A DNA stretch of 40,427 bases from a virus (Duplodnaviria > Heunggongvirae > Uroviricota > Caudoviricetes): positions 1-40,427 of the IMG/VR virus record IMGVR_UViG_2636416136_000013. One strand, 5' to 3'. The translations under genes were made by a program, and so were the position numbers. Positions 6,922 through 35,874 of this stretch are shown here, in pieces. Position 1 is the stretch's first letter, and every line of letters begins with the position of its first letter. The notes under the pieces were generated by a model, which searched no databases, was not told where the DNA came from, and was given only the letters and a program-made list of their open reading frames with translations.

Positions 6922-7248
6922 TCAAATAAGTGGTTTGCTGCCTAATTTCATTTTCTGGCGACCAACACAAGTCATACCCATTTCACTGCGTGGCTTGCTG
7001 TACCATGTGCGCTGATTCTTGCGCTCAATACGTTGCAGGTTGCTTTCAATCTGTTCGTGGTATTCAGCCAGCACCGTAAGGTCTATCGGATTCAGTGCGC
7101 TTTCTACTCGTGATTTCGGTTTGCGATTCAGCGAGAGAATAGGGCGGTTAACTGGTTTTGCGCTTACCCCAACCAACAGGGGATTTGCTGCTTTCCATTG
7201 AGCCTGTTTCTCTGCGCGACGTTCGCGGCGGCGTGCTTGTGCATCCAT
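6922..7248 (-). CDS. N: Antitermination protein N
   Basis: MDAQARRRERRAEKQAQWKAANPLLVGVSAKPVNRPILSLNRKPKSRVESALNPIDLTVLAEYH... is near-identical to lambda N as recalled (arginine-rich boxB-binding motif at the N-terminus). Start set at MDAQ. Confidence 0.92.
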   Translation of the reverse strand: MDAQARRRERRAEKQAQWKAANPLLVGVSAKPVNRPILSLNRKPKSRVESALNPIDLTVLAEYHEQIESNLQRIERKNQRTWYSKPRSEMGMTCVGRQKMKLGSKPLI

Positions 7249-7354
7249 CTGGATTCTCCTGTCAGTTAGCTTTGAGTAACGCGCCGTGATGCTTATCTCC
7301 ACGGTTGCTGTCTTGCAGCTGCATTTCGCGCTACTCAAAGCCTTCTGCTTTGAA

Positions 7355-7395
7355 TGCTGCCCTTCTTCAGGGCTAAATTTTTAAGAGCCTCACCT
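7355..7395 (-). promoter_or_regulatory. nutL site (boxA and boxB)
   Basis: Minus-strand reading gives GGCTCTTAAAAATTTAGCCCTGAAGAAGGGC: boxA-like CTCTTAA plus the boxB hairpin GCCCTGAAGAAGGGC (plus 7359..7373), matching lambda nutL. Confidence 0.8.
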
Positions 7396-7428
7396 TCAAT
7401 GGTGGTCAGTGCGTCCTGCTGATGGCTA

Positions 7429-7457
7429 AATAGTACGATTTGTACTTTATCGAGTCA
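7429..7457 (-). promoter_or_regulatory. Candidate PL promoter with overlapping OL operator
   Basis: Minus strand reads TTGACT, 17-nt spacer, TACTAT; the spacer and -10 overlap a perfect palindrome AGTAC-N5-GTACT (plus 7431..7445). Confidence 0.6.
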
Positions 7458-7522
7458 ATACAAAATGTTCTAAATATAATTAGTTTTTTATAACGCTTTG
7501 TATTTAATGGGTTTATATTTTG

Positions 7523-7553
7523 GAAAAAGAAAACCCGGCGCTGAGGCCGGGTT
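7523..7553 (-). terminator. Rho-independent terminator ending the cI / 348-aa gene transcript
   Basis: Stem CCCGGC/GCCGGG with 6-nt loop followed on the minus strand by TTTTCTTTTT, just downstream of the 348-aa ORF stop. Confidence 0.7.
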
Positions 7554-7562
7554 TGGAGTGCA

Positions 7563-8609
7563 TCACTCTGGTTCGCTGGGGAATATATTTATCAATTGCC
7601 CTGTTGAAATGTGCCCATTTTCTACAACCTCTAGGTATGAAATTTCAACAGTTGATTCTTTGGCTACAGCATTCAAAAACTCAAGAAGCTCATCAGTAGA
7701 TGTTATGTCGGCTGAGGTTTTTATGGTGAAAGATTCACCATTTGAAACCCTTATGACGTCAATATTTATGTCCTGATTTGTTTCTCCCGAGCGACGAACG
7801 CCAGTGACATAAAAGTTATCTCTTCTAGTTTCCTTTTTTCGATCAATTGATTGTCTTTGGTTTAAGGTATTCAACTGTTCTCTATTTACCACTCTCTGAC
7901 CAATTGTTACCCTCTCAACTGACGAGTCTTGAGCAAGCTTTTTAAGCAACTTGCTTTTACCATCCTCGCCGTGAGCCAGAACCTCTCTGCTAATGTTTGT
8001 TTGACCGCTAATCAACAACTTGAGCACATTGTCTTGTGCTTCGTTTACCGCTTTGGTGCTTTTTTCCACCAATTGCACCTGAGAATCTTGGTCATGTCGC
8101 TGTGTTTCGTAGTACTCATTGATCCACTTATAGCCTACCGTGCTGGCAGCTAAGACGATAGCGGCGACGGCGCATAGTGCTTGCCTTCCTGTCATTTTGC
8201 CTATCGCTTGAGTAAACACTGTCACCACTCCGTTTACAATCGGATCTGAGTCACCATCCGCTTGGCTTGAGCCTTCGCTTATTCGGTAGACAATATCCAG
8301 CAAACCTTTCTCTGCATCTTTTAGCTTCTGCCGATTATGAGTGCTGTGACTGACTACCGTAAATGCTTTTTGTATTTCATGCGTAAGCTCTGCCATACCA
8401 AAAAGCATTGACGCAGTCAATGAAGAATTATATCTATTTGGATCGCCTTTTACATTAATATTGATCTTTGGCCATCCACTGAAAACTACGTTAGGGAATG
8501 TGAAGTCGCTTGAGTCGATATCCTTCCTTCCGAGCATTTCTGTTACAAAAGATACAAAGTCGTCTTCTGACTTGATAACATATTGCGCAGGTTGATCAAT
8601 CGCTGACAT
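7563..8609 (-). CDS. Hypothetical 348-aa protein with one central hydrophobic segment, in the rexAB-equivalent position
   Basis: Starts 25 nt downstream of the cI stop on the same strand, with AAGGA Shine-Dalgarno 7 nt upstream; hydrophobic stretch ALCAVAAIVLAASTVGY mid-protein; followed by a terminator. No recognisable family. Confidence 0.7.
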   Translation of the reverse strand: MSAIDQPAQYVIKSEDDFVSFVTEMLGRKDIDSSDFTFPNVVFSGWPKININVKGDPNRYNSSLTASMLFGMAELTHEIQKAFTVVSHSTHNRQKLKDAEKGLLDIVYRISEGSSQADGDSDPIVNGVVTVFTQAIGKMTGRQALCAVAAIVLAASTVGYKWINEYYETQRHDQDSQVQLVEKSTKAVNEAQDNVLKLLISGQTNISREVLAHGEDGKSKLLKKLAQDSSVERVTIGQRVVNREQLNTLNQRQSIDRKKETRRDNFYVTGVRRSGETNQDINIDVIRVSNGESFTIKTSADITSTDELLEFLNAVAKESTVEISYLEVVENGHISTGQLINIFPSEPE

Positions 8610-8634
8610 TCTTAATCCTTAACATCCATTCCTA

Positions 8635-9288
8635 TCACCCAAACGTCTCTTCTGGCCACTGGCTGGCGATAACTTTCCCTACAACGGAACAGCTATCATT
8701 GCATGGGATCATTGGATATTGCGGGTTTAGTGGTTGTAGGAACACCTGACCGCTATCCCTGATCAGTTTCTTGAAGGTAAACTCGTCACCACCAAGTCTG
8801 GCTATGCAGAAATCACCTGGCTCAACAGCCTGCTCAGGGTCAACGAGAATTAACATCCCGTCAGGAAAGCTTGGCTTGGATCCTGTTGGTGCGGTCATGG
8901 AATTACCTTCAACTTCAAGCCAAAACGCACAATCACTGGCTTTTTTGGTTGTGCTGACCCATCTCTCCGCATCACCTTTGGTAAAGGTTCTAAGCTCAGG
9001 CGAGAACATCCCGGCCTGAACATGAGAAAAAACAGGGTACTCATATTGTTTTTTAACGGGGGCAGATGAGTATTCGCCAACAGGTGAAAATGTACCGTCG
9101 TGGTTGAATGAGACGTTATCAATACCAAGGTATTTAAACACCACACCAATCTCGTCAAGAGATGGATGACGAGATCCGCGCAACCAGTGACCAATTCCAC
9201 CCTGCGTCATACCAAGCTCTTCAGCCAACTTCTCTTGAGTTATGCCGAGCTCTTTCATTCTGGATCTAGCCAGTTCATACCATTTCAT
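8635..9288 (-). CDS. cI: CI-type prophage repressor (lambda-identical C-terminal domain, distinct HTH N-terminal domain)
   Basis: C-terminal ~130 aa ([38 protein letters not shown]...[12 protein letters not shown]) matches lambda CI including the Ala-Gly cleavage site and Ser/Lys catalytic residues; N-terminal HTH ([35 protein letters not shown]) differs. Start set at MKWYE (AGGA 7 nt upstream). Confidence 0.92.
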
Positions 9289-9350
9289 TTTCATATCCTT
9301 ATTATTACGCTCTGTACTAAAACCATCCATGCACAAGATGTATTTTTTGT

Positions 9351-9379
9351 TTGCATTCCAAAAGTACATATCGTATTAT
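9351..9379 (+). promoter_or_regulatory. Candidate PR promoter with overlapping OR operator
   Basis: TTGCAT (9351..9356), 17-nt spacer, TATTAT (9374..9379); the spacer contains AAGTACATATCGTATT, resembling the OL palindrome. Confidence 0.6.
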
Positions 9380-9405
9380 TGTCTCATGGTTACTATGGAG
9401 GGCAT

Positions 9406-9621
9406 ATGAGCAACCTACGAAAATATCGAGAGTCACTGAATATCTCTCAAACAACACTTGCTAAGGCGGTTGGATGCACACAGGGAGCTATTGGGCATTG
9501 GGAATCTGGTCGTCGCTTCCCAGACCTTAAAACATGCCGCGCTCTTGTTGCATGCCTAAACAAGTTAGGCGCAAAAGTCAGTCTTGATGACGTGTTCCCT
9601 CCGGAACACAAAGCCGCTTAA
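9406..9621 (+). CDS. cro: Cro-like HTH repressor (XRE family)
   Basis: 71 aa, MSNLRKYRESLNISQTTLAKAVGCTQGAIGHWESGRRFPD...; GGAGGG Shine-Dalgarno; divergent from cI across the operator region. Confidence 0.75.
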   Translation: MSNLRKYRESLNISQTTLAKAVGCTQGAIGHWESGRRFPDLKTCRALVACLNKLGAKVSLDDVFPPEHKAA

Positions 9622-9629
9622 GACATTCC

Positions 9630-9661
9630 CGCTCTTACACATTCCAGCCCTGAAAAAGGGC
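9630..9661 (+). promoter_or_regulatory. nutR site (boxA CGCTCTTAC and boxB GCCCTGAAAAAGGGC)
   Basis: Sequence between cro and cII matches lambda nutR boxA/boxB. Confidence 0.85.
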
Positions 9662-9740
9662 ATCAAATTAAACCACACCTATGGTGTATGCATTTATTTG
9701 CATACATTCAATCAATTGTTATCTAAGGAAATACTTACAT

Positions 9741-10034
9741 ATGGTTCGTGCAAACAAACGCAACGAGGCTCTAAGAATCGAGAGTGCGTTGCTTAACAAA
9801 ATCGCAATGCTTGGAACTGAGAAGACAGCGGAAGCTGTGGGAGTTGATAAGTCGCAGATCAGCAGGTGGAAGAGGGACTGGATTCCAAAGTTCTCAATGC
9901 TGCTTGCTGTTCTTGAATGGGGTGTCGTCGACGACGACATGGCTCGATTGGCACGACAAGTTGCTTCGATTCTCACCAATAAAAAACGCCCGGCGGCAAC
10001 CGAGCGTTCTGAACAAATACAAATGGAATTTTAA
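9741..10034 (+). CDS. cII: Transcriptional activator CII
   Basis: MVRANKRNEALRIESALLNKIAMLGTEKTAEAVGVDKSQISRWKRDWIPKFSMLLAVLEWGVVDDDMARLARQVASILTNKKRPAATERSEQIQMEF is essentially lambda CII; the upstream sequence ttgcatacattcaatcaattgttatctaaggaaatacttacat also matches lambda. Confidence 0.95.
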   Translation: MVRANKRNEALRIESALLNKIAMLGTEKTAEAVGVDKSQISRWKRDWIPKFSMLLAVLEWGVVDDDMARLARQVASILTNKKRPAATERSEQIQMEF

Positions 10035-10331: not shown

Positions 10332-11279
10332 ATGAGCAATACAGCAAAAATCTACGATTTCAGCGCCGCACACGAGCGCAGGAGCAACAGGATGGAGAAC
10401 CAGAAAACTGGTTACATTCCGTTGTACCGGAGCATTCTGAAACAGTCATGGGCGAAAGATGTTTATCTTCGCACCCTGTGGGAAAACCTTCTCCTGAATG
10501 CCGCCAGAAAGCCATACAAAGCGAATTTCAAAGGTCATGAATGGCATCTGCAACCCGGTCAACTGGTTGTGACAGCAGCTGATTTAGGTCTTCAGTTATG
10601 CGACAGGCATGGCAAGCCGGCAAGCCGTGATCAGGTTGAGCGGATGCTTCAGGTTTTTGTGAAAGAGGGGATGATCTCCATTGATGGGGAGAAGCAAAAA
10701 GGTCGTGTGATAACCATCACAAATTACCATGAATATGCTCAAAAAATGGACAATTCACCCGCACATGAAGCCGCACAAACAACCGCACATGAAGCCGCAC
10801 ATGATGAAGCCAGTAATGGCGCGGCTTTCAGCGCACATGCCGCACATGAAAGCGCACATGAAGCCACACAAACAACCGCACATCATGAACAAGAAGGTAT
10901 TAACAAGAATATAAATAATACCCCCCTACCCCCCAATGGGGGAGGCGATGGGCAGGTTAAACCTGAACGTCGCAAGGCAGAACGAATCGACTACGAATCC
11001 TTCCTGAACGCCTACAACACCGAAGTCGGTGACAGACTGCCACACGCTGTTGCGGTCAACGAGAAACGCAAACGCCGCCTGAAGAAAATCATCCCGCAAC
11101 TGAAAACGCCAAACGTGGACGGTTTCAGAGCGTATGTCAGGGCGTTTGTACATCAGGCCAAGCCGTTTTACTTCGGAGACAACGACACTGGCTGGACGGC
11201 AGATTTTGATTACCTGCTGAGGGAAGATTCGTTAACGGGAGTTCGGGAAGGGAAGTTTGCAGACAGGGGGATTGCATGA
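10332..11279 (+). CDS. O: Replication initiation protein (O-like; internal repeat-encoded linker)
   Basis: Located where lambdoid phages encode O / P22 gene 18; [10 protein letters not shown] start resembles lambda O; central region encodes repeated AHEA/TTAH units from DNA direct repeats; stop overlaps the helicase start (ATGA). Confidence 0.75.
10758..10899 (+). repeat. Iteron-like direct repeats inside the O-like gene (candidate replication origin) followed by an AT-rich stretch
   Basis: Multiple copies of CGCACATGAAGCC / GCACATG units within ~140 bp, then aacaagaatataaataata and a C-rich/G-rich inverted element; the same layout as ori-lambda inside O. Confidence 0.6.
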
Positions 11280-13669
11280 GACAGGATATCGAAGCGAGCG
11301 TTATCGGTGGCCTGCTGATTGGTGGATTAACTCCAACCGCCAGTGACGTTCTGGCAACGCTTGAGCCGGAAGCGTTTTCAATTCCGCTCTACAGGAAAGC
11401 CTTCGAAGTTATCCGTAAGCAGGCGAGAAACAGAAATCTAATCGACGCGCTGATGGTTGCCGAGGCGTGCGGAGAGGAGCATTTCACGTCAATCCTGATG
11501 ACCAGCAAAAACTGCCCGAGTACCGCAAACCTGAAGGGATATGCCGGAATGGTCGCGGATAACTATCACCGCCGTCTGGTGCTGGAAATCATGGATGAAA
11601 TGCGTGAACCAATTCAGAGCGGAACCATCGACGCGTCGAGTCAGGCGATGGATGAACTTGTAAAGCGTCTCTCAGCTATCAGAAAGCCCCGTGACGAGGT
11701 TAAACCGGTACGCTTAGGGGAAATCATCACCGACTACACTGACACGCTTGACAGGCGTCTGAGGAACGGAGAAGAGTCAGATACCCTGAAGACCGGAATC
11801 GAAGAACTTGATGCCATCACCGGAGGGATGAACGCGGAAGACCTGGTGATAATCGCTGCTCGTCCTGGTATGGGGAAAGCAATGGCGCTAAGCGAAGGGA
11901 TTTTACTTGCAGATGGCACCTGGACTACTCACGGAGAAGTCAAAATTGGCGATCGCATCGCGTCAATAGACGGGCTTCCTTCGGAGGTAATTGGCGTCTT
12001 CCCACAAGGGAAGAAATTCACATATTTAGTCACCTTTGAAGACGGACGTAGCGTGAAATGTGCCGACAACCACTTATGGGAAATTTCATCATCAAGATTT
12101 ACTGGTAAACGCGTTGTTGATACTGATGCGCTGGCTGGGATGCTACAAAAAACACGTTATCAGGGAAGAATAAGAGTGCCATCCTTGACCGGAGACTTTG
12201 GTAAAAATATTTCCCTTGATGGTTGGGTTATTGGTGCTCTACTTGGTGACGGTTCGTTGATAAAAGGCATCAAATTCACCAACTCGGAAGAATATGTCCT
12301 GAGCCGCATGAGTGATGCAATTGCACCATTGCGACTGGTTAAGGTAGGAGAGAATGATTATTTGATAAGCAACCAAAAAGGCCAGAAGAACCCACTATTG
12401 GACAAACTACGTGGCATTGGGGTGATCGGGAAAGGTGCGTCCGAGAAGGAAATCCCAGCAGAAATTTTTAGTGCTAGCAAAGAAATACGTACCGGTGTTT
12501 TAACTGGCCTTCTCGAGACAGATGGCTGGGTTGAGAAGTCCGGATGCATCCGCTTTAGTTCATCCAGTCAGAAATTAGCTAAAGGATTAGTAAGGCTTGT
12601 TAGATCTTTAGGTGGAACCGCCAAAGAATCCAGCAGGACGGGAATAGTTTACACGTACAAAGGAGAGAAGCATGACGGACTTGATGCACACATGGTCAGC
12701 ATGAAGTTGCCATCATCTTTGATAGAGCAAATTCACTCACCACGTTTACGCAAAAATCTCGGGATTAACAGGCTTGGCGACCTTGGTGTGGGTATCAAAT
12801 CGGTTGAAGTTGTTGAGCCAGAAGAGTGTCTCTGCATCATGGTAAGCCATCCTAGCCATCTCTATGTGACAACGGATTACATCGTTACGCACAATACGGA
12901 ACTGGCGCTGAAGATTGCCGAAGGCGTTGCAAGCCGCGTTATTCCTGGTTCTGACGTCCGGCGCGGGGTATTGATTTTCTCAATGGAAATGAGCGCATTG
13001 CAGATTGCAGAGCGAAGCATTGCCAACGCCGGGAGGATGTCGGTTAGCGTACTGCGAAATCCTGCATCGATGGATGACGAAGGCTGGGCGCGCGTTGCTA
13101 ACGGCATGAGTCAGCTTGCAGATTTGGATGTATGGGTAGTCGATGCCTCGCGGTTATCGGTCGAAGAAATACGCTCAATCGCAGAACGGCACAAACAGGA
13201 AAATCCAAACCTGTCACTCATCATGGCGGATTATCTTGGCCTGATTGAGAAGCCGAAAGCAGATCGCAACGACCTCGCAATTGCTCACATCTCCGGAAGC
13301 CTTAAGGCGATGGCGAAAGACCTGAAAACGCCTGTGATCTCCCTAAGTCAGCTTTCGCGCGATGTTGAGAAGCGACCAAACAAACGCCCGACAAACGCAG
13401 ATTTGCGTGATTCAGGAAGCATTGAACAGGACGCAGACTCAATCATCATGCTCTATCGGGAAGCGGTATATGACGAGAACAGTAGCGCCGCGCCATTTGC
13501 TGAAATCATCGTGACGAAAAACCGTTTTGGCTCACTTGGTACGGTTTACCAGCGGTTCTGTAACGGACACTTTGTTGCATGTGACCAGGATGAAGCCAGA
13601 CAGATTTGCACAGCATCAAATGCACCTGCTGCGCGTGGCAGACGATATGCACAAGGGGCTGACGTATGA
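11276..13669 (+). CDS. DnaB-family replicative helicase interrupted by an intein
   Basis: Walker A ...[11 protein letters not shown] is split from [10 protein letters not shown]...; C-terminal DnaB motifs follow ([49 protein letters not shown]). The exteins alone total ~458 aa, normal for DnaB. Confidence 0.9.
11879..12895 (+). mobile_element. Intein (~339 aa) with a LAGLIDADG homing-endonuclease domain inserted in the helicase P-loop
   Basis: Block A-like A(M)[13 protein letters not shown] after GMGK; block B NHLW; two LAGLIDADG motifs ([13 protein letters not shown] and [14 protein letters not shown]); block F ECLCIMV; block G YIVTHN followed by Thr. The exact N-terminal boundary is uncertain by about 2 residues. 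Confidence 0.8.
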
Positions 13670-35006: not shown

Positions 35007-35445
35007 CGGATAGGCGCTCTTTTGCCTCTTCGATTAAATCAGCACAAATAAGAGGTAGCTCTGATGAAACAACTTCCCAGCCAGATTTTTTAACAACTTC
35101 ATTTAACCACTCTTCTCGATCGTGAGTTCCTCTTCTTTTTTCTAGGAGGAATATTTGAGAGTAAATCTGAATGGCCTTCTCGTTTAGATAAAACGCATAT
35201 TGCCTGTTTAAAACAACATCTGCAAGTATATCAATGCCTTGTTGAGTTTTTGCCGCTACATCTGGCTCTACTCCCATACGAATAGATAAATCGCATAACT
35301 CAACGAATGCACGCTCTTCAGCGTCGTATTTCATTTTGTAAAAATGTGAAGCCAGTTTTTGTGTTTCGGCGAGTTCTGCCCTTAATTTTTTTATCTTGCT
35401 TCTCGTTAATATACCAAACACACCAACCTCCTTAGTTTTGAGCAT
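34999..35445 (-). CDS. Hypothetical cytoplasmic protein (~140-148 aa)
   Basis: ORF 34999..35445; an AAGGAGG Shine-Dalgarno lies just inside the annotated 5' end, so the true start is probably the GTG at plus 35419..35421. Confidence 0.55.
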   Translation of the reverse strand: MLKTKEVGVFGILTRSKIKKLRAELAETQKLASHFYKMKYDAEERAFVELCDLSIRMGVEPDVAAKTQQGIDILADVVLNRQYAFYLNEKAIQIYSQIFLLEKRRGTHDREEWLNEVVKKSGWEVVSSELPLICADLIEEAKERLSDG

Positions 35446-35679: not shown

Positions 35680-35874
35680 ATGAAAGTTACGACCATAGAA
35701 GAACGCCTGAACAACACTGAGTTAAACCAAACCCTGCTTGACCAGCGACTTTCAGATCTTGAACTTAAAGATCTTGATGCGCAAATATCAGAAGCAGAAG
35801 CCAAGCTCTCCAGCTTAAACCACCGCAAGAAGCAAATCCGCAACAGAATTACTCAGGGACGCGGAAGCTGTTGA
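35680..35874 (+). CDS. Possible small coiled-coil protein (64 aa)
   Basis: ORF frame 35596..35874 with internal ATG; heptad-like sequence; weak ribosome-binding context. Confidence 0.25.
   Translation: MKVTTIEERLNNTELNQTLLDQRLSDLELKDLDAQISEAEAKLSSLNHRKKQIRNRITQGRGSC

Follow-up and report, generated by a model that had tools for sequence, protein, structure and literature searches.

The immunity type analyzed here was described in 2000 for the Shiga-toxin phage VT2-Sakai. Fattah et al. (2000) are cited in PMC10742460 for high C-terminal and low N-terminal homology between the CI proteins of VT2-Sakai and lambda, and also for a report of cross-immunity between the two phages. The same paper gives binding values for lambda CI on VT2-Sakai operator oligonucleotides; binding was weak (3.7–6.4 μM), similar to the 3.07 μM obtained for lambda's own OR3. 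The operators of this immunity type are labeled "putative" in GenBank records, and assays of the matching CI or Cro on them were not found in the literature searched.

Two other groups of repressors bear comparison. The repressor of BAA2326, an O104:H4 Stx2a phage, is 61% identical to lambda CI and was shown by footprinting to bind three OR sites (Chakraborty et al. 2018, PMC5977221). It resembles the repressor studied here in being a lambda-related CI with diverged specificity, and differs from it in having a C-terminal domain of a type only about 64% identical and in having been characterized biochemically, whereas the present type is known from sequence. Its operators (e.g., ATAACTGTGCGTAATG) are weakly symmetric and unrelated to those described below, and we therefore rejected it as a member of the same immunity type (PMC5977221). 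The repressor of Salmonella phage epsilon34 (and also of g341c, SPN9CC, and vB_SosS_Oslo) is likewise built from two domains, of which the N-terminal one shares about 54% identity with ours and the C-terminal one about 80% with the lambda type. An operator proposed for epsilon34, WTACRAWWTGTAT, has the TAC...GTA core of our sites; however, only two OR sites, each of 13 bp, are annotated there, and a different immunity specificity is expected.

Organization of the immunity region

The window, which is the whole 40,427-nucleotide stretch of phage DNA that was analyzed, contains P22-like virion genes, and no stx gene was seen in it. An earlier note had described the segment from 8635 to 9661, which contains cI, the PRM/PR operator region (9295–9405), cro, and nutR, as a hybrid immunity region. 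Our analysis confirmed a real hybrid repressor switch, complete with a Cro of its own and six operators to match. Very probably, it is a lysis/lysogeny switch in the style of lambda, has immunity of the VT2-Sakai (Sp5) type, and is carried by an E. coli phage that is P22-like (CUS-3-like). The genes for the two regulators are as follows:

8635–9294, minus strand: cI, 219 aa
8635–9045, minus strand: C-terminal part of cI, lambda type (end of the linker, Ala94-Gly95 cleavage site, S24 protease/oligomerization domain)
9046–9294, minus strand: N-terminal helix-turn-helix domain of cI, non-lambda, VT2-Sakai type
9406–9621, plus strand: cro, helix-turn-helix type (HTH_3), 71 aa

Protein alignment showed that 134 of the last 136 residues of CI are identical to those of lambda CI. 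This domain had been called lambda-identical; near-identity is what the alignment bears out, since residues 122 (Ser to Cys) and 200 (Glu to Asp) are substituted. At the codon level this part differs from lambda by 21 synonymous and 2 non-synonymous changes. Residues Ala94-Gly95, Ser132, and Lys175 align with Ala111-Gly112, Ser149, and Lys192 of lambda CI, and these columns are invariant. CI matched the solved lambda CI structures 3bdn, 8gmu, and 1f39 (E 5.6e-97) and the Pfam families Peptidase_S24 (E 8.9e-29) and HTH_3 (E 8.3e-11, residues 11–58). By its domains, an N-terminal HTH followed by an S24 domain with an Ala-Gly site and a Ser/Lys dyad, it is a self-cleaving repressor of the LexA/lambda-CI type.

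The first 83 residues aligned only weakly with lambda CI (about 25% identity), as expected from the earlier claim that the HTH domain is different. DNA identity to lambda switches on sharply at position 9045, the codon for Tyr84, which belongs to the linker between the domains and is 10 residues N-terminal of the Ala-Gly cleavage site; the description of the region as a domain-level mosaic is thus well founded. Relative to lambda, the mosaic boundaries are at 7424/7425, 9045/9046, and 9627/9628. Cro, which had likewise been said to differ from that of lambda, gave no local alignment with lambda Cro at E ≤ 100. It matches HTH_3 in Pfam (E 4.2e-12) and is identical to VT2-Sakai Cro at all 71 residues. 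The recognition helices of Cro (TQGAIGHW) and CI (TQGGIGHW) are nearly the same.

The lambda-type genes and signals that flank the switch, the putative promoters, and the gene between cI and OL are as follows:

6922–7248, minus strand: N antiterminator gene, lambda type (Pfam N36, E 3.3e-25)
7359–7389, minus strand: nutL (boxB 7359–7373, boxA 7382–7389)
7430–7458, minus strand: putative PL from a consensus scan (−35 TTGACT at 7458–7453, 17-nt spacer, −10 TACTAT at 7435–7430)
7526–7554, minus strand: intrinsic terminator closing the cI operon (stem 7554–7531, then a T run)
7563–8609, minus strand: 348-aa ORF from the ORF list, located where lambda has rexA-rexB (PHROG 6191, "unknown function," E 5.8e-36)
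9301–9329, minus strand: putative PRM read from the sequence (−35 TGGATG at 9329–9324, 17-nt spacer, −10 AATAAT at 9306–9301, then 6 nt to the ATG at 9294)
9350–9379, plus strand: putative PR from a consensus scan (−35 TTTGCA, 18-nt spacer, −10 TATTAT)
9630–9661, plus strand: nutR (boxA 9630–9637, boxB 9647–9661)
9741–10034, plus strand: cII, lambda type (Phage_CII, E 1.7e-48)
9763–9750, minus strand: TTGC-N6-TTGC repeats read from the sequence (TTGCGTTTGTTTGC)

The near-identity to lambda previously noted for N, nutL, nutR, and cII was borne out in each case. N is identical to lambda N at 97 of 108 residues (DNA 93.9% identical to lambda 35062–35386), and CII to lambda CII at 96 of 97. Compared with the lambda PL leader, nutL has an identical boxB and a single substitution in boxA (GGCTCTTA here, CGCTCTTA in lambda). 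DNA from 9628, comprising nutR through the start of cII, is 100% identical to lambda. The TTGC repeats at 9750–9763 are presumably the CII-binding site of PRE, given their identity to lambda.

The putative PL occupies the position of lambda PL, and lambda homology starts immediately downstream of it at 7424; this lambda-like block (7336–7424, 96.6% identical) ends at the start of PL. Downstream of PR come a GGAGG ribosome-binding site and then the cro ATG at 9406. The geometry of PRM is that of lambda PRM (−35 TAGATA, 17-nt spacer, −10 TAGATT, 6 nt, ATG), and the record of a Stx1-converting phage (AP005153) annotates its putative maintenance promoter there too. All three promoters are placed alike in VT2-Sakai and its relatives (AP005153, Stx2 II, Nil2, 2851, 1717, and the PA-series phages). 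The cI-operon terminator contains 28 bp that are 100% identical to lambda 35799–35826. Searches of Pfam and PADLOC with the 348-aa ORF gave no match; the ORF is present in phi458 and absent from Louie, and other phages of this immunity type have different genes in that slot.

Relation to lambda immunity

The likeness to lambda therefore extends to the C-terminal domain of CI, the tripartite OL and OR, the geometry of PRM, the probable leaderless start of cI, N/nut/cII/PRE, and the cI-operon terminator. The region differs from lambda in its N-terminal CI domain, in its HTH_3-type Cro, which is unrelated in sequence, in its operators, which are unrelated to TATCACCGC, and in having a single ORF instead of rexA-rexB. 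A search for 17-bp operators of the lambda TATCACCGC type, allowing up to three mismatches, gave five matches in the window, no more than expected by chance, and none in 7425–7525 or 9295–9405. The statement that the candidate operators do not resemble those of lambda was thus correct, and the two sites on which it was based are two of the six VT2-Sakai-type sites described below. The region has neither the CI N-terminal domain and Cro of lambda nor lambda operators at PL and PR, so that it does not belong to imm-lambda. These sequence features suggest a distinct immunity specificity, as proposed, which would place the phage outside lambda immunity.

An alternative is that the separation of the hybrid CI from lambda immunity is incomplete, and that mixed dimers or oligomers with lambda CI, or weak binding to lambda operators, lead to partial cross-immunity or to cross-induction of co-resident prophages. 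The near-identity of the C-terminal domain (134/136) is compatible with mixed oligomers, and the micromolar affinity of lambda CI for VT2-Sakai operator oligonucleotides, together with the cross-immunity cited in PMC10742460, indicates that specificity may not be absolute. However, lambda-type operators are absent near both PL and PR, and the recognition helix of CI differs from the QSGVGALFNG of lambda. In the accessible portion of PMC10742460, moreover, the EMSA values for lambda CI on VT2-Sakai oligonucleotides are 10–25 times weaker than those on its own OR1 and OL1, and a non-specific DNA control is not described there. Among other papers citing Fattah et al. (2000), we found no detail on cross-immunity between VT2-Sakai and lambda. 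We consider this alternative unlikely, and a separate specificity remains the preferred reading.

Operators

Six near-palindromic candidate operators of 15–17 bp with the consensus ARTACA-N4-GTAYT were found, three at PL and three at PR/PRM (no strand is assigned; ranks are those in the whole window):

7431–7447: OL1, TAGTACGATTTGTACTT, exact consensus match, ranked 1st by the OR-trained matrix
7456–7472: OL2, overlapping the PL −35, one mismatch, ranked 7th by the OR-trained matrix
7489–7505: OL3, two mismatches, ranked 6th by the OR-trained matrix
9303–9319: OR3, overlapping the PRM spacer and −10, one mismatch, ranked 5th by the OL-trained matrix
9329–9345: OR2, abutting the PRM −35, two mismatches, ranked 25th by the OL-trained matrix
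9362–9378: OR1, within the PR spacer and reaching into the −10, exact consensus match, ranked 2nd by the OL-trained matrix

Two palindromes had been singled out earlier. The first, AGTACGATTTGTACT, was said to overlap the −10 of PL; it lies at 7432–7446, outside the 8635–9661 segment, and does share 4 bp with TACTAT. The second, AAGTACATATCGTATT, was placed within the PR spacer; it was found there, at 9362–9377, and it also overlaps the −10 TATTAT (9374–9379).

The six sites coincide with OL1–3 and OR1–3 of VT2-Sakai as published (Table S1 of PMC10742460); order and spacing agree. OL1 is the published site except for one central base, OR1 except for one central base and the last base, and OR3 except for the last base; OL3 matches its published counterpart, and OL2 and OR2 correspond in position. 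Conservation extends to all six. OL1 and OR2 are kept in seven relatives, OL2 and OR3 are conserved, and OL3 forms a conserved block beside a variable spacer. The sites have this spacing in L001 and L004 as well.

It could be argued that these palindromes are chance products of AT-rich promoter sequence and that the true operators are different or fewer. The AGTAC-N5-GTACT pattern from which the earlier proposal started shows just a mild excess across the window as a whole: with up to two mismatches allowed there were 15 matches where 8.5 ± 2.9 were expected, an excess that is weak alone. Of the 15 matches, 4 nevertheless fall within the two promoter regions, each of about 100 bp. OR2, the weakest of the six sites, is a poor match, and in the record of the Stx1-converting phage the putative OR3 is offset by a few bases from ours. 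Against chance, however, the OL and OR sites cross-validate: a palindromic weight matrix built from the three OL sites alone recovered OR1 and OR3, and one built from the OR sites alone recovered OL1, OL3, and OL2, at the ranks given above. The only two exact matches to the consensus in 40 kb lie on the −10 of PL and on that of PR. In addition, the number, order, and spacing of the sites are identical in seven phages, in which the half-sites are kept while the central bases and the spacers between sites vary. Chance palindromes are thus a very improbable explanation, and we infer that CI and Cro bind all six sites.

An inverted-repeat finder with a minimum seed of 6, which leaves 5-bp arms unreported, found only the OL1/OL2 pair. 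A different OR2, centered near 9346 and thus at a lambda-like distance from OR1, was considered and rejected; it has four consensus mismatches by eye and lies in a variable stretch of the alignment.

Measured from center to center, the OL sites lie 25 and 33 bp apart; at OR the distances are 26 bp (OR2–OR3) and 32–33 bp (OR1–OR2). Those of lambda are 24 and 20 bp at OL and 23 and 24 bp at OR. Because of this difference, the pairwise OR1/OR2 cooperativity of lambda may or may not apply.

Relatives and origin of the hybrid repressor

Over the cI-cro block, DNA identity to VT2-Sakai, which has the same lambda-type C-terminal domain, amounts to 92.7%. The N-terminal domain of CI is 96.4% identical to those of VT2-Sakai, the Stx1-converting phage, phage 1717, and the PA-series phages, and 100% identical to that of phi458; the next relatives (epsilon34, g341c, and L/ST64T) are about 54% identical. 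In contrast to this agreement, the OL region is just 78% identical to that of the VT2-Sakai type, and the cargo between cI and OL differs. The flanks differ as well: the Stx1-converting phage record has an HK97-like N and an HK022-like CII annotated, whereas N, nutL, nutR, and cII of the window are lambda-type. The same module with lambda-type flanks is present in the Escherichia phages phi458 (99.4–99.7% identical over 6953–10030) and in Louie, Dewey, and vB_EcoP-720R6 (97.8–98% identical). Beyond cII, phi458 has O and P of the lambda type, whereas the window has an O-like gene and an intein-split DnaB.

DNA identities of the C-terminal domain among the window, VT2-Sakai, and lambda are 94.4%, 92.5%, and 92.9%, and the differences are nearly all synonymous. 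It follows from this equidistance that the CI fusion predates all three lineages and that the hybrid junction did not arise in this phage. A recent origin in this phage, by recombination inside cI between lambda itself and a VT2-Sakai-type phage, would fit the sharp junction and the lambda-like blocks on both sides of the module but is the least credible of the alternatives, because all VT2-Sakai-type repressors share both the junction and the lambda-type domain, the three C-terminal domains are about equally distant (92.5–94.4%), and the junctions specific to the phi458/Louie/Dewey/720R6 lineage are only the outer ones, at 7424/7425 and 9627/9628.

Proposed regulation

In the mechanism that we propose, the 83-residue HTH domain of CI would read the ARTACA-N4-GTAYT operators, while the C-terminal part, with its Ala-Gly cleavage site and Ser/Lys self-cleaving domain, would also form dimers and higher oligomers. 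CI bound at OL1/OL2 and at OR1 would block the lytic promoters. From OR2, directly against the weak PRM −35, it could activate its own synthesis as in lambda, and at high concentration it would shut PRM off from OR3, which overlaps the −10. The cI mRNA made from PRM probably begins at the ATG itself and is leaderless, as in lambda. Cro, a small HTH protein, should bind the same sites as CI because its recognition helix is nearly the same. The 134/136 identity to the lambda C-terminal domain predicts that DNA damage should trigger RecA-stimulated self-cleavage of CI, as it does for lambda CI. Antitermination through N and nut, and establishment through cII and PRE, would use lambda's own parts.

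The combination of a lambda-identical oligomerization domain with a non-lambda operator layout allows a further, doubtful possibility. OR2 and OR3 are separated by a lambda-like 26 bp and OR1 and OR2 by 32–33 bp, so that cooperative pairing may favor OR2–OR3; PRM would then be throttled at low CI, and the result would be a "hair-trigger" switch that often induces spontaneously. Through the shared domain, mixed oligomers with repressors of lambda immunity might also couple the induction of several prophages within one strain. The phage phi458, in which the region is 99.4% identical, has reportedly been published as a spontaneously induced prophage.

Significance

The hybrid region is not new. 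Its immunity type has been known since 2000, and at least 80% of the immunity-region stretch is present in 776 of 5426 complete E. coli genomes (about 1 in 7), which makes the region an ordinary one. What is local about it is solely where it sits, between lambda-type N/nut/cII flanks in a phage that is P22-like (CUS-3-like), and the window contributes only one further genomic setting for a common and already described module. The region is a textbook case of modular exchange among lambdoid phages, with the junction inside a gene at an interdomain linker, and with the DNA-binding domain, Cro, and operators moving jointly as a single specificity unit. Many Shiga-toxin phages, among them the Stx2 prophage of E. 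coli O157:H7 Sakai, are governed by this immunity type, so that biochemistry done on it would bear on toxin induction.

Mosaic structure of the immunity region

Blastn of the window against lambda defined the lambda-like blocks, which alternate with non-lambda stretches:

6947–7274, N, 93.9% identity to lambda
7336–7424, PL leader and nutL, 96.6% identity to lambda
7425–7525, OL, non-lambda
7526–7553, terminator after the cI operon, 100% identity to lambda
7563–8609, minus strand, one 348-aa ORF replacing lambda rexA-rexB, non-lambda
8621–9045, C-terminal part of cI, 93.6% identity to lambda
9046–9627, cI N-terminal domain, OR, and cro, non-lambda
9628–10030, nutR, tR1, and cII, 97.8% identity to lambda

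The immunity region itself (8635–9661) contains the following:

8635–9294, minus strand, cI, 219 aa
111 bp between cI and cro, divergent control region
9406–9621, plus strand, cro, 71 aa
9630–9661, nutR

CI has HTH_3 (E 8.3e-11) and Peptidase_S24 (E 8.9e-29) domains. From Tyr84 to the end it is identical to lambda CI at 134 of 136 residues, the sole differences being Ser to Cys at 122 and Glu to Asp at 200, and the Ala-Gly cleavage site and Ser/Lys dyad are kept. Residues 1–83 align only weakly with lambda CI; for Cro, a plain HTH_3 protein, no similarity to its lambda namesake was detected. Within cI the switch between non-lambda and lambda-like sequence is abrupt, at the Tyr84 codon in the interdomain linker, 10 residues ahead of the cleavage site. 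The top solved-structure matches to CI were lambda repressor entries (3bdn, E 5.6e-97; 8gmu; 1f39), and no structure close to the N-terminal domain was found among the structure matches. N (97/108 residues) and cII (96/97) are nearly identical to their lambda counterparts, the DNA matches lambda exactly from nutR to the start of cII, and nutL has an identical boxB and a single change in boxA. The earlier note had proposed this combination of a lambda-type CI C-terminal domain with a different DNA-binding domain and Cro on a lambda-like scaffold; the observation is confirmed in all its parts, apart from the position given for the PL palindrome, and its interpretation is supported in substance.

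Located between cI and OL, the 348-aa ORF precedes the lambda-identical terminator. Neither Pfam nor PADLOC gave a match; the sole assignment was to PHROG 6191, a family of unknown function. Because other phages of this immunity type have different genes at the rexA-rexB slot, the slot looks like a variable cargo position; the ORF is possibly a prophage-expressed gene that excludes other phages. On the other side of the immunity region, the O-like replication initiator gene (10332–11279) contains 12-bp repeats, CCGCACATGAAG, at 10759–10804 and 10839–10870. These are probably origin iterons and also encode an "AHEAA"-rich protein stretch. A DnaB-like replicative helicase (11276–13669, plus strand, 797 aa) carries an interrupting segment, a LAGLIDADG-type homing endonuclease (intein), and its DnaB_C match falls in two stretches.

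Candidate operators and promoters

A search with the pattern ARTACA-N4-GTAYT, allowing up to two mismatches, identified two triplets of sites, one at OL and one at OR:

7432–7446, OL1, exact match
7457–7471, OL2, match
7490–7504, OL3, match
9304–9318, OR3, match
9330–9344, OR2, match
9363–9377, OR1, exact match

OL1 and OR1 are the only exact matches in the 40-kb window, and each overlaps the −10 of a lytic promoter. No lambda-type operator was found near PL or PR. The palindrome that the earlier note described at PL is present, but at OL1, outside the coordinates assigned to it. Its literal pattern, AGTAC-N5-GTACT, was only mildly enriched in the whole window (15 matches vs. 8.5 ± 2.9 expected); cross-validation between OL and OR was much clearer. 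With a palindromic matrix built from the OL sites alone, OR1 ranked 2nd, OR3 5th, and OR2, a weak site, 25th; with one built from the OR sites alone, OL1 ranked 1st, OL3 6th, and OL2 7th. The order and spacing of the six sites are constant in seven phages with the same repressor. In alignments the half-sites are conserved, and the central bases and inter-site spacers vary, most clearly between OL2 and OL3. CI and Cro have almost the same recognition helix (TQGGIGHW in CI, TQGAIGHW in Cro), which fits a single operator set serving both proteins.

PL and PR were located by consensus scan and the putative PRM by reading the sequence:

7458–7430, minus strand, PL, TTGACT, 17 nt, TACTAT
9350–9379, plus strand, PR, TTTGCA, 18 nt, TATTAT
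minus strand, putative PRM, TGGATG directly after OR2, 17-nt spacer, AATAAT, 6 nt, ATG at 9294

Lambda PRM has an equal layout (TAGATA, 17 nt, TAGATT, 6 nt, ATG); it is therefore plausible that the cI mRNA is leaderless and that CI at OR2 activates PRM. In lambda CI, Glu34 and Asp38 form the patch that activates PRM; in the alignment these residues (mature numbering) stand opposite Glu21 and Glu25 of the window CI. On the minus strand at 9286–9300, two ATGs are in frame, one at 9294 and the other at 9288. The former is placed like the leaderless PRM start of lambda; the latter, 7 nt past AAGGA, could serve leader-carrying transcripts, for example from PRE.

Relation to known phages and specificity

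This feature has already been described and is very common. At the DNA level, the cI-cro block shares 92.7% identity with that of the Shiga-toxin phage VT2-Sakai and 92.9% with that of the Stx1-converting phage of strain Morioka V526, whose record already annotates promoters and three putative operators each at OL and OR. VT2-Sakai Cro is identical (71/71), and its CI N-terminal domain is 96.4% identical. At 95% identity or above, that domain occurs in 63 phage records, including 1717, 2851, Nil2, and PA-series Stx2a phages, and at least 80% of 8635–9661 is present in 776 of 5426 complete E. coli genomes. All six sites, found independently, coincide with the VT2-Sakai operators in Table S1 of Sedhom and Solomon (2023; PMC10742460), which includes OR1 AAGTACATATTGTATTT and OL1 TAGTACGATATGTACTT. 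According to that paper, Fattah et al. (2000) saw that homology between VT2-Sakai and lambda CI is high in the C-terminal part and low in the N-terminal part. For epsilon34, Villafane et al. (2008) reported a repressor C-terminal domain ~80% identical to that of lambda and an N-terminal domain with ~50% identity to its counterparts in L, VT2-Sa, and Nil2, identities that we confirmed, and proposed the operator WTACRAWWTGTAT; the epsilon34 control region holds related ATACA...GTAT sites. In the VT2-Sakai record (NC_000902), an in-frame TAG at cI codon 31 replaces the Gln codon opening the recognition helix, and cI is therefore annotated in two pieces. The TAG could be a real amber mutation of the sequenced isolate or an error.

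The only binding data found on VT2-Sakai operators (PMC10742460) used lambda CI, which bound these oligonucleotides at 3.7–6.4 μM, compared with 0.2–0.35 μM for lambda OL1 and OR1 and 3.07 μM for lambda OR3; our literature search found no experiment with the matching CI or Cro. Because the same paper cites Fattah et al. for cross-immunity between VT2-Sakai and lambda, an immunity distinct from that of lambda is an expectation from sequence rather than a demonstrated fact.

Operator spacing

Center-to-center spacings are 25 bp (OL1–OL2) and 33 bp (OL2–OL3) at OL, and 26 bp (OR3–OR2) and 33 bp (OR2–OR1; 32 bp in Sakai) at OR, whereas those computed from the lambda record are 24, 20, 23, and 24 bp. 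Thus, despite the lambda oligomerization domain, the OR pair nearest PR lacks lambda-like spacing. Because of this spacing, and because phi458 is described as a spontaneously induced prophage, we considered a hair-trigger switch with favored OR2–OR3 pairing and frequent spontaneous induction, a reading of low probability.

Age of the fusion

The whole window is a P22-like phage genome of ~40 kb (CUS-3, Kapi1, phiv205-1-like), in which a P22-like virion module is combined with a lambda/HK97-like early region. Nucleotide differences in the C-terminal domain numbered 23 between window and lambda, 31 between window and Sakai, and 29 between Sakai and lambda (synonymous/non-synonymous codons, 21/2, 28/3, and 28/1). 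Almost all of these differences are synonymous. The CI fusion therefore predates the split of the three lineages and did not arise in this phage, and strong purifying selection acts on the domain. Lineage specificity (phi458, Louie, Dewey, 720R6) is confined to the outer junctions, where lambda-type N/nutL and nutR/cII flank the module.
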